From positions 1 through 28,098 of the forward strand of contig JAXDQQ010000313.1 in the NCBI GenBank assembly GCA_034667805.1: a DNA stretch of 28,098 nucleotides, in the 5' to 3' direction. The stretch is from Thermoplasmata archaeon (GTDB taxonomy: Archaea > Thermoplasmatota > E2 > JACPAO01 > JAHFTW01). The notes beneath the pieces were generated by a model. That model was not told the DNA's origin, ran no database searches, and saw only the letters and a program-made list of their open reading frames with translations. Positions 3,220-10,989 of the stretch are shown one piece after another (position 1 is the first letter of the stretch; every line of letters starts with the position of its first letter). The position numbers were made by a program, and so were the translations under genes.

Positions 3220-3236
3220 AAGCAAAACTTATAGCA
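3220..3236 (+). promoter_or_regulatory. Archaeal BRE-TATA promoter of AbrB cassette 1
   Basis: AAGCAAAAC-TTATAG (TTATAG 3229-3234) in an AT-rich island about 60 nt upstream of ATG 3294. Confidence 0.7.
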
Positions 3237-3293
3237 GGTGCATTCGTGGGGCGGCCTTACCTGGCTTCGGCCGGGTGGTCGGTCGGTCCACAA

Positions 3294-6609: not shown

Positions 6610-9600
6610 ATGTCCAGCACCCGAACCATCAGCCTGCTCATCGCCCTGGCCTTCCTGCCGCTCGTCGGCTTCGCCACTGCCCAAACGGAAACGCCCGTCA
6701 CCGTCGAGGAACGTTGCGCGGAGGACAACAGCGAAGGATCCTCCGTGCGCGTCGTCGGCGAAGAGGTCGTCTGCACCAACGCCCAGGACTCGGGCATCGA
6801 GGAAGACCAGACCTGCGAATCGGATGGCTCGACGGGGAACACGGTCGTCACGGTCTCAGGCGAACAGGTCCTATGCCACGAGGACTCTGAAGCGCTCGCT
6901 AGCCTCACTGTCTCGTTCCACGCCGCCGATGCCGACGACTCCGCCGGACCTGGTGGCTCATGCGAAGGCGCGGATATCAGCCACATCACGGCCACAATCC
7001 CGCCTGGACTCGGTGCGGAACCGCCGGCCCTCACGCCGGACATCGCCAACACCCGCTGCGTCATGGTCACCGCCAACAACGACCAGACCTTCGCGGTCGC
7101 CCTGCCCAGCGCCGACGGCGCCAGCCTGGCCCTCCAGTTCTACACCGGCGAGTTCCAGGCCCTCGGGGAGCCCTCCATGGACCCCCTCAGCAACGGCCAG
7201 TGCGCCGGCGGAGCCAACGGCGGCATCGTCCTCGGTGGCCCGAACCTGATCGACGCCTTGCCCCCATCCCCCGCCTCGCAGTGCGTCCAGGCCACGCTCA
7301 CCCTCGCCAGCACGGTCGTCCTGCGCATCGCCATCGGCATCCCGGCGGGCATCATCCCCGGCGTCCCGTGCGACCCGAGCTCGCCGACCTTCCAACCGGA
7401 GGACTGCACGGCCGCCGTGTGCGCCGAGGTCGACGACGCGGTCCCCGTCCTCTGCGAAGGCGACCTGCCGGTCGAATGCGACCCGCAGGACCCCGAGTTC
7501 GCCCCAACGGACTGCGCTGAGCTGCCCGGCCTCGGTGGCGGCGTGCTTGGCTACCACGCCGAGTTCACGTTCTTCCCCGACCTCGCCGCCGACCAAGCGC
7601 CCGCGTTCCAGTTCCTGAACAACCAGCTGCTGATCAAGGCGACCCTGACCGACGCCAACGGCAACCCGCTCGCCTTCGCCCCGCCCGGCTCCTCGACCAC
7701 ACGTGCGCAGTTCGTGCTGAGCAAGTTCCCGCCTGCCGACGGCGACGACGAGGACGACCTGCCTGACCTGGTCATGACCATCCCGGCGAACTCGATCTCT
7801 GGAGCCGACCAGAACGTCGCCTCGCTGTTGCTCCTGCGCGAACAGCTCGTGACGGCCAGCGCCGACCCCGGCACAGTGTGGACCATCCGCATCGAGTCGC
7901 CAAACCAGCCCCTGCTCGACGCACCCGACGGCGACGGCCTCGTCTCGTTCCCGTCGGCGTTCTCCTTCTACAGCGCCGCGGCCGGAGCCGTCTTCCCGGA
8001 CGCGCCCGAACTCGCCGACGTGCTCGACTCGGTGCCGACGCCGATCCGCGCCCTGCCCAAGCCAGTCGCCACCATCGTCTCGAACGCCGCGTTCACCGCG
8101 TCCGAGCCTGCGTCGTTCGGCCGGTTCGCCGTCTCCCTTACGCCCTCGCAAGGCGGCCCGACCGAGGTGCCCTTCAGCATCGCCGAGACCGCTGCCGGCT
8201 CCGCCAAGCGCGGCGTCGACTACTACCTCCGTTACGCCGATGACAGCAACCCGGCGACTCCGGAAGCCGTCATCCTCGGCAACAGTCTCAATGTCCCCGG
8301 CGGCACGAGCGTCGTCGCCGTCGACGTCGTCCCGATCGACGACACGATCCTCGAGTATGCCCAGACCGTCGTGATGGCCCTGTCCGAGGGCGCGCAAGCC
8401 GCCGTCGGCTCGGCCGCCTCGGCCACCTTGAGCATCGCGGACAACGAAGTGCCCGCGGTCAGCGTCACGAGCACCGATCTCGAGGCCCGCGAGTCCGGCG
8501 CCAGCCCCGAGGCCCGCGTCACCTTCACGCGCACCTCTCCGCCGGGCCCCGAGAACGCCAAGATCCCCGAGCTCACGGTCACGTTCGGCCGCGCGGTCGG
8601 TTCGACGACCAGCGCCAACGACTTTGGTGCCCTGTGCGCGAACCCCGTGCCGGACCTGCCGCTGGACGACCTCGTCCCGCGCGACTGCTTCCGCTCGGAT
8701 GCCGGGCAATGCCCGGCCCGACTGGCGGGCACCTGCGACACGCTCATCGCCACGTTGGCCACCGGCCTGGGCGAGGATTCCCCGATCGCGTGCACCGGAA
8801 GTGGCGACGCCGAGCTCTGCACCGTCGCCCTCCCCGCCGGCGCTTCGGAGACAAGCCTGCTCTTCCTGCCGGTCGACGACCGCACCTACGAAGGCACCGA
8901 GTTCCTCCAGGTCCACGCCATCGACATGGATCCCTACGACCTGGGCACCGAAGCAGTCCAGACCATCGCCCTCGTCGACAACGACATCCCGTCCATCGGC
9001 CTGAGCCTCAACGGCCAGCTGACGCACGAGGCCGGCAATCCCCTGCGGCTGACGATCACCCGCGCGCCTCCCCCCACCGACCAATTGAGCGACGTGGAAG
9101 CGCGGGCCCGCACCTCCTTGCCCGGCCCCCTGGCGCCTGTCCAACTCGAAAAGATCACCGTCCCCCTGCTTGTCTCGGGCGAAGGGACCCTCGGCTCGGA
9201 CTTCGACGTGGTCAAGCTCCCCGGTTCCACGACCGTCATCAAGCCCGTCGGCGGCGGCGTGGGCGTCGACATCCCCGCTGGCCAGACCAGCGTCACCGTG
9301 CTGGTGGCCGGCCTGCAGGACCGCGAATACGAGGGCCTCGAATCGGGCACCCTCGCCTTGCCTGAGGACACCTTCGGGCCGGGCTCGACGGCGTTCCCCC
9401 ACCTCGTGGGGTTCTACGTCGTGGACGATGACGTCAAGCCCCTGGTCAACATCCGCGCCGTCGACGGCGACGCCAGCGAGGACGGCGACAGGGCCTCCCT
9501 CGCCATCGAGCGCTTCGGCGACTCCTCGACCGACCTGGTCGTCAGCGTCGTCGCCGGCGGCACCGCCGCGCTCGGCGGGGACTACACGCTGTCCGCCACG

Positions 9601-10989
9601 CAGGTCACCATCCCTGCCGGCCTCACCACGGCGGTCCTCACGCTGACGCCGTCGGACGACAGCTCCAAGGAATCGACGGAGGTCGCGCGCATCTTCATCG
9701 TGCCCGACTCCGCGTTCCTCGTCGGCACGCCGTCGTTCGCCGACGTGCGCATCCTCGACGACGACCAGCCGGCGGTGCACGTGACCGTGCCCGACTTCGA
9801 CCTCGCCGAATCCGGCGCCACGGGCGCCGTCGTGCGCGTCCACCGCACCGCGGTCGACCTGGAGCACGCCCTGACCGTCAACTACGTGGTGACCGGCCCC
9901 GCAAAGTCGGGCGTCGACTTCACGTCGGTCGGCACCTCCGTGACCATCCCGGCCGGCAAGTCGTTCGCCGACATCGCCATCGCGGCCATCGACGACACAG
10001 TGGCCGACGCCAACGAGTTCGTCACCATCACGCTGCTCGACACGTCCACCTACTCGCTCGAGGCCCCTGCCTCGGCGAGCGTGACCATCGTCGACGACGA
10101 CCTGCCGCTCACGGGCGACCAGGACGGCGACGGCCTGTCGAACTTCGAGGACCCCTGCCCGCTGATTGCCGACCCGGAGCCCGCCGACCTGGACCAGGAC
10201 GGCAAGGGCGACGCGTGCGACGACGACCAGGACAACGACGGCGCGACCGACGCGGACGAGCTGGCGGCCCACACGGACCCCCGCGACCCCGACACCGACG
10301 GCGACCTCGTCAAGGACGGCAAGGAGGCCAAGGACGGCACCGACGCGCTCGACCCGTTCTCGCCCGACTACCGCGCCAAGGACGTCAGCGCCCGGCTCGA
10401 GGACGACGGCATGCACGTCACCTGGACCGCCGGCGACACGCGCATCGACCACTTCCTCGTCTGGCGCACGTCCGACCCGGTGCTCGTCACCGAGGTCAAG
10501 GCCACCGGCGCCCAGTACGAGGTCGTCGACCCCGCCTTCCCCGGCGGACGCCACCAGTACCGCATCCAGGCCGTCCTCGACGGCCAGGCGACGGCCGGCT
10601 ACGACGCCCTGTCCAGCGGCGCATCGGCCCCGGTCAGCGCCGCGCTCTGCTCGGCGCAGCCGCTCGACACCGACGGCGACGACCTGTGCGACGCCCGCGA
10701 GGCCGAGCTCGGCACGGACCCCTTGGTCCCTGACTCGGACGGCGACGGGCTCACCGACGGCGCCGAGGACCTCGGCCGCTACGGCGCCGCGACGGACCCG
10801 CTCGACGCGGACTCCGACGGCGACGGCATCGACGACCGCGAAGACCTCGGCGTCGACCTCGAGTCGGCCAGCGTCGGCAGCGGCAAGGCCGACCTCGACG
10901 CGACCTGGGTCGTGCTCGCCATCGTCCTGGCCGGCTCCGTGCTGGTGCTGAGCCTGGTGGGCGTCGTCCGCTTCATGCGGCGCACGTAG
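6610..10989 (+). CDS. Membrane-anchored surface protein: Cys-rich N-terminus, 5 Calx-beta domains, TSP3-like repeats, FN3-like domain, C-terminal TM anchor (1459 aa)
   Basis: Signal peptide MSSTRTISLLIALAFLPLVGFATA. Five Calx-beta-type units (8053-10101) with A..G.DY/F, IPAG.T, DD..E..E and DDD/DND ends. DQDGDGLSNFEDPCP and DSDGDGLTDGAE repeats. TM WVVLAIVLAGSVLVLSLVGVV followed by RFMRRT. Confidence 0.92.
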   Translation: MSSTRTISLLIALAFLPLVGFATAQTETPVTVEERCAEDNSEGSSVRVVGEEVVCTNAQDSGIEEDQTCESDGSTGNTVVTVSGEQVLCHEDSEALASLTVSFHAADADDSAGPGGSCEGADISHITATIPPGLGAEPPALTPDIANTRCVMVTANNDQTFAVALPSADGASLALQFYTGEFQALGEPSMDPLSNGQCAGGANGGIVLGGPNLIDALPPSPASQCVQATLTLASTVVLRIAIGIPAGIIPGVPCDPSSPTFQPEDCTAAVCAEVDDAVPVLCEGDLPVECDPQDPEFAPTDCAELPGLGGGVLGYHAEFTFFPDLAADQAPAFQFLNNQLLIKATLTDANGNPLAFAPPGSSTTRAQFVLSKFPPADGDDEDDLPDLVMTIPANSISGADQNVASLLLLREQLVTASADPGTVWTIRIESPNQPLLDAPDGDGLVSFPSAFSFYSAAAGAVFPDAPELADVLDSVPTPIRALPKPVATIVSNAAFTASEPASFGRFAVSLTPSQGGPTEVPFSIAETAAGSAKRGVDYYLRYADDSNPATPEAVILGNSLNVPGGTSVVAVDVVPIDDTILEYAQTVVMALSEGAQAAVGSAASATLSIADNEVPAVSVTSTDLEARESGASPEARVTFTRTSPPGPENAKIPELTVTFGRAVGSTTSANDFGALCANPVPDLPLDDLVPRDCFRSDAGQCPARLAGTCDTLIATLATGLGEDSPIACTGSGDAELCTVALPAGASETSLLFLPVDDRTYEGTEFLQVHAIDMDPYDLGTEAVQTIALVDNDIPSIGLSLNGQLTHEAGNPLRLTITRAPPPTDQLSDVEARARTSLPGPLAPVQLEKITVPLLVSGEGTLGSDFDVVKLPGSTTVIKPVGGGVGVDIPAGQTSVTVLVAGLQDREYEGLESGTLALPEDTFGPGSTAFPHLVGFYVVDDDVKPLVNIRAVDGDASEDGDRASLAIERFGDSSTDLVVSVVAGGTAALGGDYTLSATQVTIPAGLTTAVLTLTPSDDSSKESTEVARIFIVPDSAFLVGTPSFADVRILDDDQPAVHVTVPDFDLAESGATGAVVRVHRTAVDLEHALTVNYVVTGPAKSGVDFTSVGTSVTIPAGKSFADIAIAAIDDTVADANEFVTITLLDTSTYSLEAPASASVTIVDDDLPLTGDQDGDGLSNFEDPCPLIADPEPADLDQDGKGDACDDDQDNDGATDADELAAHTDPRDPDTDGDLVKDGKEAKDGTDALDPFSPDYRAKDVSARLEDDGMHVTWTAGDTRIDHFLVWRTSDPVLVTEVKATGAQYEVVDPAFPGGRHQYRIQAVLDGQATAGYDALSSGASAPVSAALCSAQPLDTDGDDLCDAREAELGTDPLVPDSDGDGLTDGAEDLGRYGAATDPLDADSDGDGIDDREDLGVDLESASVGSGKADLDATWVVLAIVLAGSVLVLSLVGVVRFMRRT

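Follow-up and report, generated by a model that had tools for sequence, protein, structure and literature searches.

Two tandem gene cassettes lie at positions 3220 to 10989 of a 28,098-nucleotide stretch of DNA (contig JAXDQQ010000313.1 of assembly GCA_034667805.1; hereafter the window, meaning the whole stretch that was analyzed) from an uncultured soil Thermoplasmatota. The source is a metagenome-assembled genome (MAG) of 1.86 Mb that is 66% complete and has a GC content of 70%. Each cassette pairs a gene for a small AbrB-fold protein (AbrB1 or AbrB2) with a gene for a very large exported protein (big1 or big2), to which we refer as its cargo. A preliminary description of this DNA had reported two units of identical layout, and this was confirmed: AbrB1 with big1 and AbrB2 with big2 each stand behind a box that resembles a B recognition element (BRE) followed by a TATA element. 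Real genes were told by codon-position GC, and signal peptides were judged by eye from their n, h, and c regions. The gene structure of the cassettes, which could be established directly, and the putative control elements are as follows.

3222 to 3234, + strand: putative promoter of cassette 1, with BRE-like GCAAAAC and TATA-like TTATAG (3229-3234), about 60 nt 5' of AbrB1.
3294 to 3479, + strand: AbrB1, 61 aa, a 41-aa swapped-hairpin AbrB/MazE/SpoVT domain plus a low-complexity tail of about 20 aa.
3476 to 6241, + strand: big1, an open reading frame (ORF) of 921 aa whose start overlaps the AbrB1 stop as ATGA.
6263 to 6309, + strand: putative archaeal-type terminator of operon 1, a tract between the units that is rich in pyrimidines and contains T runs.
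6329 to 6349, + strand: candidate operator, a TGAAA-N11-TTTCA palindrome abutting the cassette-2 BRE/TATA.
6350 to 6364, + strand: putative promoter of cassette 2, with BRE-like GGCAAAT and TATA-like CTTATAAT (6357-6364), about 35 nt 5' of AbrB2.
6398 to 6598, + strand: AbrB2, 66 aa, a paralogue of AbrB1.
6610 to 10989, + strand: big2, an exported protein of 1459 aa that begins 11 nt after AbrB2, with AGAGG at 6597-6601.

From their sequences, AbrB1 and AbrB2 can be assigned to the swapped-hairpin AbrB/MazE/SpoVT superfamily, and the earlier claim that they are paralogues within it held. A manual count gave 21 of 43 identical residues over the domain, both proteins begin MRF, and both exceeded the Pfam cutoff for PF04014 (24.7 bits), AbrB1 at 37.6 bits (E value of 2.2e-9) and AbrB2 at 30.2 bits (E value of 4.4e-7). 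For TIGR01439 (cutoff of 28.3 bits), AbrB1 was above the cutoff at 29.9 bits and AbrB2 below it at 20.6 bits. The Pfam and NCBIfam antitoxin families (MazE and PrlF) matched weakly, and the equivalog antitoxin models stayed far under their cutoffs. Among PDB sequences, a profile of the subfamily matched 2GLW of P. horikoshii (E value of 3e-12) and Sso7c4 of Saccharolobus solfataricus (5ITM/5ITJ/2L66, E value of 2e-4), with further matches to SpoVT (2RO5), Abh (2FY9), and AbrB (1Z0R/1YFB). The assembly contains just three PF04014 genes, and an AbrB-PhoU fusion is encoded in it outside the window; this fusion, the TATA-type promoters, and the pyrimidine terminators agree with an archaeal source.

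Both AbrB genes are under purifying selection, with ratios of nonsynonymous to synonymous substitution rates (dN/dS) against orthologues of 0.08 to 0.30 for AbrB1 and 0.14 to 0.59 for AbrB2, and the proteins of relatives are 42 to 73% identical to AbrB1. Ten columns are invariant across 76 family sequences (R2, F3, G11, T14, P16, R20, G28, D29, E32, and F33), and R10 is conserved in at least 90% of them. R20 aligns with R22 of Sso7c4, the equivalent of AbrB R23, and R10 lies beside Sso7c4 R11; these two residues, R11 and R22, were named at the putative DNA-binding site of Sso7c4 (PMC3159460). The counterparts of Bacillus AbrB R15 and R24 are not conserved in the subfamily.

In an AlphaFold2 (AF2) model of the AbrB1 monomer, residues 11 to 40 had predicted local distance difference test (pLDDT) values of 87 to 91 and the tail (residues 47 to 61) values below 50, and the strands were unpaired, as expected of an intertwined dimer. 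A Foldseek search with this model returned MazE, AbrB, and half-barrel peptides as its top rows, all with E values above 1, a nonsignificant outcome that is likewise expected for an obligate intertwined dimer. Subfamily members at genomic loci are 55 to 81 aa long and carry just a variable tail rich in P, S, T, and A (pLDDT below 50) beyond residue 41; none of them has a C-terminal multimerization domain of the Bacillus AbrB type, and longer or fused forms of the subfamily were looked for and not found. The preliminary description was also right that no toxin is present: toxin families (PIN, MazF, YhaV, Doc, and others) are absent among the window genes, and in 28 loci of the subfamily, described below, the downstream gene is never a toxin. 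Thus, with neither a Bacillus-type C-terminal domain nor a toxin partner, these proteins are neither classical transition-state regulators nor antitoxins.

The cargo genes follow closely. Both had been described as overlapping with or spaced 11 nt from the preceding AbrB gene; the 11 nt are correct for big2, but the overlap of big1 is doubtful. A second in-frame ATG of big1, at 3551, stands after a Shine-Dalgarno-like AGAGGAA (3540-3546) and directly before the signal peptide. Translation may actually begin there, in which case the spacer is 72 nt and there is no overlap. The peptide word SLSQSK-S/T-Q occurs both in the 5' extension of big1 (window 3479-3550) and in the tail of AbrB2 in the congener G008 (L023 12674-12730), and the C-rich linker DNA from the AbrB domain to the cargo signal peptide seems to be positionally equivalent whichever ORF claims it. 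The signal peptides occupy 3551-3628 in big1 and 6610-6681 in big2, and the mature chains begin QTQ (cleavage between AQA and QT) and QTE (cleavage between ATA and QT), respectively. Both therefore start with Gln-Thr, as had been noted, but a Gln after AxA is not specific, since 17 of the 204 signal-peptide candidates from a crude genome-wide screen have AxAQ. The description of both giants as Cys rich applies to big1, which has 52 Cys (5.6%, versus a genome mean of 1.08%), but not to big2 (1.6%).

Big1 is acidic, with an isoelectric point of about 4, and has no membrane anchor. It contains weak TSP3 repeats, with a subthreshold TSP_3 match (E value of 0.0043, 17.1 bits), and an atlas search with it gave low-score TSP3-type leads only. 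Big2 matched Calx-beta (E value of 3e-15, 56.7 bits) and TSP3_bac (E value of 6.8e-7, 29.5 bits) in Pfam, showed weak, repeat-level similarity to the cohesion and gliding proteins MtsC, MtsD, and CglD, and has a transmembrane helix (about 10906-10968) and then a basic tail at its C terminus. The cargo of relatives carries TSP3_bac, Calx-beta, and PKD domains, and cargo proteins in equivalent positions have a patchy identity of 25 to 49%, with no region as conserved as the AbrB domain. The anchor-less C-terminal motif of big1 (about 6140-6238), which consists of a Cys, a Gly-rich turn, and a short strand of alternating hydrophobic residues whose last residue is L or V, is shared by the cassette-1 cargo of the congeners G002, G005, G006, and G008 (L021-L024), of L052, and of L061-L063. 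The cassette-2 cargo of relatives shares a C-terminal transmembrane anchor plus a basic tail. The sequences suggest that cassette-1 and cassette-2 cargo are free and anchored surface partners rather than alternatives; the two look complementary, and coexpression fits this better than switching. In cassette 2 of G006 (L021 8611-13895), the cargo is split into a 243-aa signal-peptide ORF and an overlapping 1619-aa ORF, which is probably due to a frameshift or an assembly error in the MAG.

To see how far the pairing extends, the subfamily profile was searched in 38 genomes of the same order and in 159 further genomes belonging to its class, and the downstream DNA was read for every strong match. 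The profile scored at least 75 bits in 14 of the 38 order genomes (5 of 13 in the genus) and at most 31 bits in the other 159. All 17 readable loci in reference genomes had an exported protein starting at -4 to +11 nt of the AbrB stop, and where complete it was a signal-peptide ORF of 650 to 2000 aa. The same arrangement was found at 11 of 11 metagenome loci, which lie on eight contigs chosen from protein-database clusters, three of them carrying the tandem pair. The preliminary description had made linkage to secreted proteins in relatives the test of its proposal, and the linkage was present throughout: in 28 of 28 readable subfamily loci, the gene for an exported protein begins at -4 to about +75 nt of the AbrB stop, with an ATGA overlap in 19, and these proteins range from 650 to more than 3000 aa. 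Because it held in every related locus, the order-wide pairing of AbrB with an exported protein is far beyond chance. Most spacers leave no room for a separate promoter, which makes it very likely that AbrB and its cargo are cotranscribed.

The pairing is peculiar to this subfamily among the genes that we compared. Weak generic AbrB matches in the order and the class, used as controls, precede small toxin-like or unrelated genes, and the bacterial matches of the profile (in Bryobacterales, Dehalococcoidia, and Acidimicrobiia) are ordinary antitoxins or regulators with no exported neighbors. A tree of the AbrB proteins (39 rows, 46 columns) gave no resolution, so that the surface-linked clade rests instead on the gap between scores of at least 75 bits and scores of at most 31. 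At least 170 further subfamily clusters at 90% identity, all of 50 to 97 aa, were present in the protein database, and a scan of metagenome contigs gave at least five short loci.

The cassettes also occupy a fixed place, between two neighboring genes that lie outside them.

1280 to 2902, + strand: transglutaminase-like exported protein (Transglut_core, E value of 9.8e-24) with a lipobox-like signal peptide with GGC, the upstream neighbor, which belongs to the conserved island of surface genes.
11045 to 11569, + strand: small membrane protein with weak Zn-ribbon matches, closing the island before a giant protein with TIG domains.

The conserved order is exported transglutaminase-like protein, AbrB1, free cargo, AbrB2, anchored cargo, Zn-ribbon membrane protein, and TIG giant. 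The Transglut_core gene stands directly 5' of AbrB1 on the metagenome contigs L061-L063, and Zn-ribbon homologues come directly after cassette 2 in G002, G005, and G008. The tandem pair itself, on the same contig and strand and in the same synteny, is present in four congeners (G002, G005, G006, and G008) and on the three contigs L061-L063, and the duplication of the cassette is therefore ancient. In another congener, G012 (L066, G012:C35, about 7300-11150), about 2 kb separates the transglutaminase gene from the Zn-ribbon gene, and this interval contains no AbrB gene and no cargo gene. It can be read directly from this slot that the presence of AbrB goes with that of the cargo, and the pair of cassettes behaves like an accessory insertion whose site is constant. 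The G012 slot holds a small antitoxin-like ORF of 88 aa instead. Two further arrangements indicate that a single AbrB can be accompanied by different numbers of cargo genes: in G005 (L024 5239-12243), an extra signal-peptide protein of 2334 aa without an AbrB of its own lies between the cassette-1 cargo and AbrB2, and in L052, two giants stand in direct succession without an AbrB2.

The control regions are similar among relatives as well. Orthologous promoters have an equivalent layout, with GCAAC/A and an A/T box, and the T-run tract that had been called a pyrimidine terminator was indeed found between the units; similar pyrimidine tracts follow the upstream gene at the cassette-2 promoters of relatives. 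Words resembling ATTCAGAA, often as ATTC-N-GAAT palindromes, occur 20 to 70 nt 5' of the TATA element in 15 to 18 of 26 promoters, and 100 block shuffles reached at most 14 of 26 regions. The exact palindrome of the candidate operator, TGAAA-N11-TTTCA, occurs only once in the 1.86-Mb assembly. Its relaxed form, GAAA-N11-TTTC, occurs nine times in the genome, which is not above neighboring spacings, and mostly at unrelated hairpins; a regulon defined by this word has no support, as the word is not enriched. Additionally, the cassette-2 promoter and leader (6313-6400) align over about 90 nt with 21483-21570, upstream of a distant giant gene at 21622 (more than 2159 aa), with a local score of 32 versus 17.9 ± 3.1 for shuffles (maximum of 28; z of about 4.6). 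The two regions have the words AATTCTG, GAAA-N11-TTTC, and GAGGGTGGC in common. The copy at the giant gene lacks a TATA box and has a 7-codon ORF at the position of AbrB, and it may be a paralogous promoter without its former AbrB or a shared control region.

On balance, we lean toward reading each AbrB protein as a dedicated, probably autoregulatory transcription factor that is encoded by the first cistron of its own surface-protein operon. The cassettes would be two tandem paralogous two-gene operons, each transcribed from its own BRE/TATA promoter and each encoding a minimal AbrB/SpoVT-fold protein (41-aa domain plus disordered tail) and then a translationally coupled exported protein, which would be free and Cys rich in operon 1 and C-terminally membrane anchored in operon 2. 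The cargo is predicted to consist of very large, acidic, Sec-exported, adhesin-like surface proteins with Ca-binding repeats (TSP3/Calx-beta). The AbrB homodimer would use the conserved Arg2, Arg10, and Arg20 to bind DNA in the region of its own promoter; being made from the mRNA of its cargo, it would feed back on transcription of the operon, with a costly and fast-evolving product as its target. Further targets may be the sister cassette and the promoter of at least one more giant-protein gene. The conservation of AbrB (42 to 73%) while the cargo is patchy (25 to 49%) fits a conserved partner, such as DNA or the transcription machinery, and not the variable cargo.

Several observations weigh against this reading. 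The oligomerization domain at the C terminus of Bacillus AbrB is missing from the subfamily proteins. For simple regulation, a single regulator at each locus would do, yet each cargo keeps a tightly coupled paralogue, and a protein-level partner predicts the same. The evidence for an operator is weak, since the promoter words are AT rich, GAATC is a general intergenic word, and the orthologous promoters are not independent of each other. GAATC/GATTC reached 7.3 per kb in AbrB promoters, but each word is found at about 1.4 to 1.5 per kb in the intergenic DNA of the assembly versus 0.2 per kb for GAATT/AATTC; the enrichment is confounded by this abundance and by the GC gap between AbrB promoters (52%) and the background set (67%), and GAATC/GATTC may have a role throughout the lineage, as a word near promoters or as one bound by a regulator. 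A sequencing-run search for the window sequence matched four DNA metagenomes, all from soil, and no RNA runs. Finally, TSP3 and giant surface proteins at other loci of the congeners do without AbrB; AbrB as a general companion of TSP3 proteins is ruled out by the same loci.

If AbrB acted instead as a cytoplasmic, protein-level partner of its unexported cargo, in the manner of an antitoxin or a chaperone, its dimer or tail would bind the signal peptide or early mature region of the precursor and either keep it export competent or report its back-up to the promoter, comparable to conditional cooperativity. The layout is that of a type II toxin-antitoxin (TA) operon, with an AbrB-fold N-terminal domain, a disordered tail, and a gene overlapping as ATGA, one paralogue has been kept per cargo, and the tail and the cargo N termini are both variable and may have coevolved. 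We nevertheless regard this as unlikely. ATGA overlaps are ordinary in this genome, as for rimK and the next gene (17880-17883), the AbrB domain is better conserved than any part of the cargo, and the characterized members of the fold are overwhelmingly DNA binding; the lack of a fused form is weak evidence in the same direction. A predicted complex of the AbrB1 dimer with residues 1 to 150 of big1 had a score of 0.02 and a partner pLDDT of 37, which counts neither way. Were this reading right, the fold would have been put to a new use.

The solo minimal AbrB dimer domain, the presence of just three PF04014 genes in the assembly, and the want of a strongly conserved operator would also agree with a general chromatin or architectural protein like Sso7c4, which would structure DNA locally, for instance by holding a long, GC-rich, highly transcribed locus open, or with a simple hitchhiker in the operon, in place of sequence-specific regulation. 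The distribution makes this unlikely too, because a core chromatin protein is not expected to be so patchy (14 of 38 order genomes and 5 of 13 genus genomes), and its joint loss with two neighboring cargo genes would be unexpected. A distinctly improbable alternative is that the small ORF serves as a translated leader, coupling ribosomes to the cargo start and setting its translation rate, with the fold being secondary. The -4 overlap in 19 of 28 loci and the cargo starts that, at some loci, have no Shine-Dalgarno site of their own are in line with such a role; however, strong purifying selection with ten invariant residues over 76 sequences is not, and there are loci with spacers of 7 to 75 nt and their own AGAGG site. 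That the small ORF is a decayed TA remnant, functionally unrelated to its neighbor, is scarcely tenable and is effectively refuted by the conservation data, as the weak MazE and PrlF matches stand against a toxin in 0 of 28 loci, strict order-wide linkage to exported giants, purifying selection on both paralogues, and loss of AbrB together with cargo.

The dedicated-regulator reading could be joined to secretion if TA-type feedback had been reused for its control, with AbrB repressing the operon and its tail binding precursor that backs up in the cytoplasm once Sec export or surface assembly is saturated, which would tighten repression in the manner of conditional cooperativity. We consider this rather improbable. 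If it were true, each giant would carry its own throttle, and cross-talking paralogues could set the ratio of free to anchored protein.

Elsewhere in the window, a 310-aa gene (11583-12515, - strand; GC of 0.94 at third codon positions) separates the gene for the Zn-ribbon membrane protein from that for the TIG giant and is the sole minus-strand gene found. Its C-terminal segment is winged-helix-like (AbiEi_4, E value of 6e-4, under the cutoff), and it is possibly another regulator of the surface island. An Rfam search of the window gave zero matches. The contigs related to the window come from uncultured Thermoplasmatota or Thermoplasmata MAGs of soil and groundwater.

Many Thermoplasmatota have a surface without a classical S-layer, built on giant proteins, and to our knowledge almost nothing is known about how the cell surface is controlled in uncultured members of the phylum. 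The module described here is easy to recognize, with a BRE/TATA promoter, an AbrB protein of 55 to 81 aa, and an exported giant, and it is strictly conserved in one order, where it is gained or lost as a unit. It also yields a rule for annotation, namely that a set of "antitoxin-like" genes are not antitoxins. 

Type II TA systems (MazEF, VapBC, and PrlF-YhaV) are organized like the cassettes: behind the promoter come the gene for a small AbrB-fold protein, whose C-terminal tail is disordered, and a second gene that is coupled to it in translation. The antitoxin of these systems autoregulates its operon. In contrast to their cytoplasmic toxins of 100 to 150 aa, the second gene here encodes an exported, adhesin-like protein of 650 to more than 3000 aa. 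MraZ, a DNA-binding protein of the AbrB superfamily, is encoded by the first gene of the bacterial, envelope-related dcw cluster and regulates its own operon; it differs in being a bacterial tandem-domain protein of about 150 aa that forms dodecamers and has other targets. The DNA-binding swapped-hairpin fold is also that of the N-terminal part of AbrB and Abh of Bacillus subtilis, for which a comparison by eye showed about 45% identity over about 32 residues. The two Bacillus proteins control the extracellular matrix and surface functions, and the paralogues can act jointly (PMC3025583). However, those proteins have a C-terminal multimerization domain, act globally, and are encoded alone, whereas those described here have a tail of about 20 aa and one cargo each. 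Sso7c4 (PDB 2L66; PMC3159460) resembles the proteins of the cassettes in form, being a homodimer of about 55 aa from an archaeon that consists of a solo, minimal AbrB fold. It matches the subfamily profile only at an E value of 2e-4, is described as an abundant, nonspecific chromatin protein, and has no reported operon link to exported proteins; unlike a core chromatin protein, the subfamily is patchy (14 of 38 order genomes) and has a fixed neighbor.

Our literature searches gave no account of archaea in which an AbrB gene is paired with a giant exported protein, so the pairing of an operon-leading AbrB gene with such a protein appears to be new, while a toxin-less AbrB gene heading a non-TA operon is already known from hgcAB. 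The closest precedent is found in archaeal mercury methylators, in which a toxin-less AbrB/PrlF-like gene (HgcC) lies directly 5' of hgcA and was proposed to be a regulator (PMC10349881). As in the cassettes, a solo toxin-less AbrB-fold gene heads a non-TA archaeal operon there, and regulation is proposed only. The targets are cytoplasmic and membrane methylation enzymes rather than exported giants, a tandem duplicated cassette was not described there, and AbrB1 scored 17.9 bits on the NCBIfam HgcC model versus a cutoff of 70. The cassettes of this window would thus be a second case, after hgcAB, of toxin-less AbrB genes as dedicated regulators of archaeal operons.

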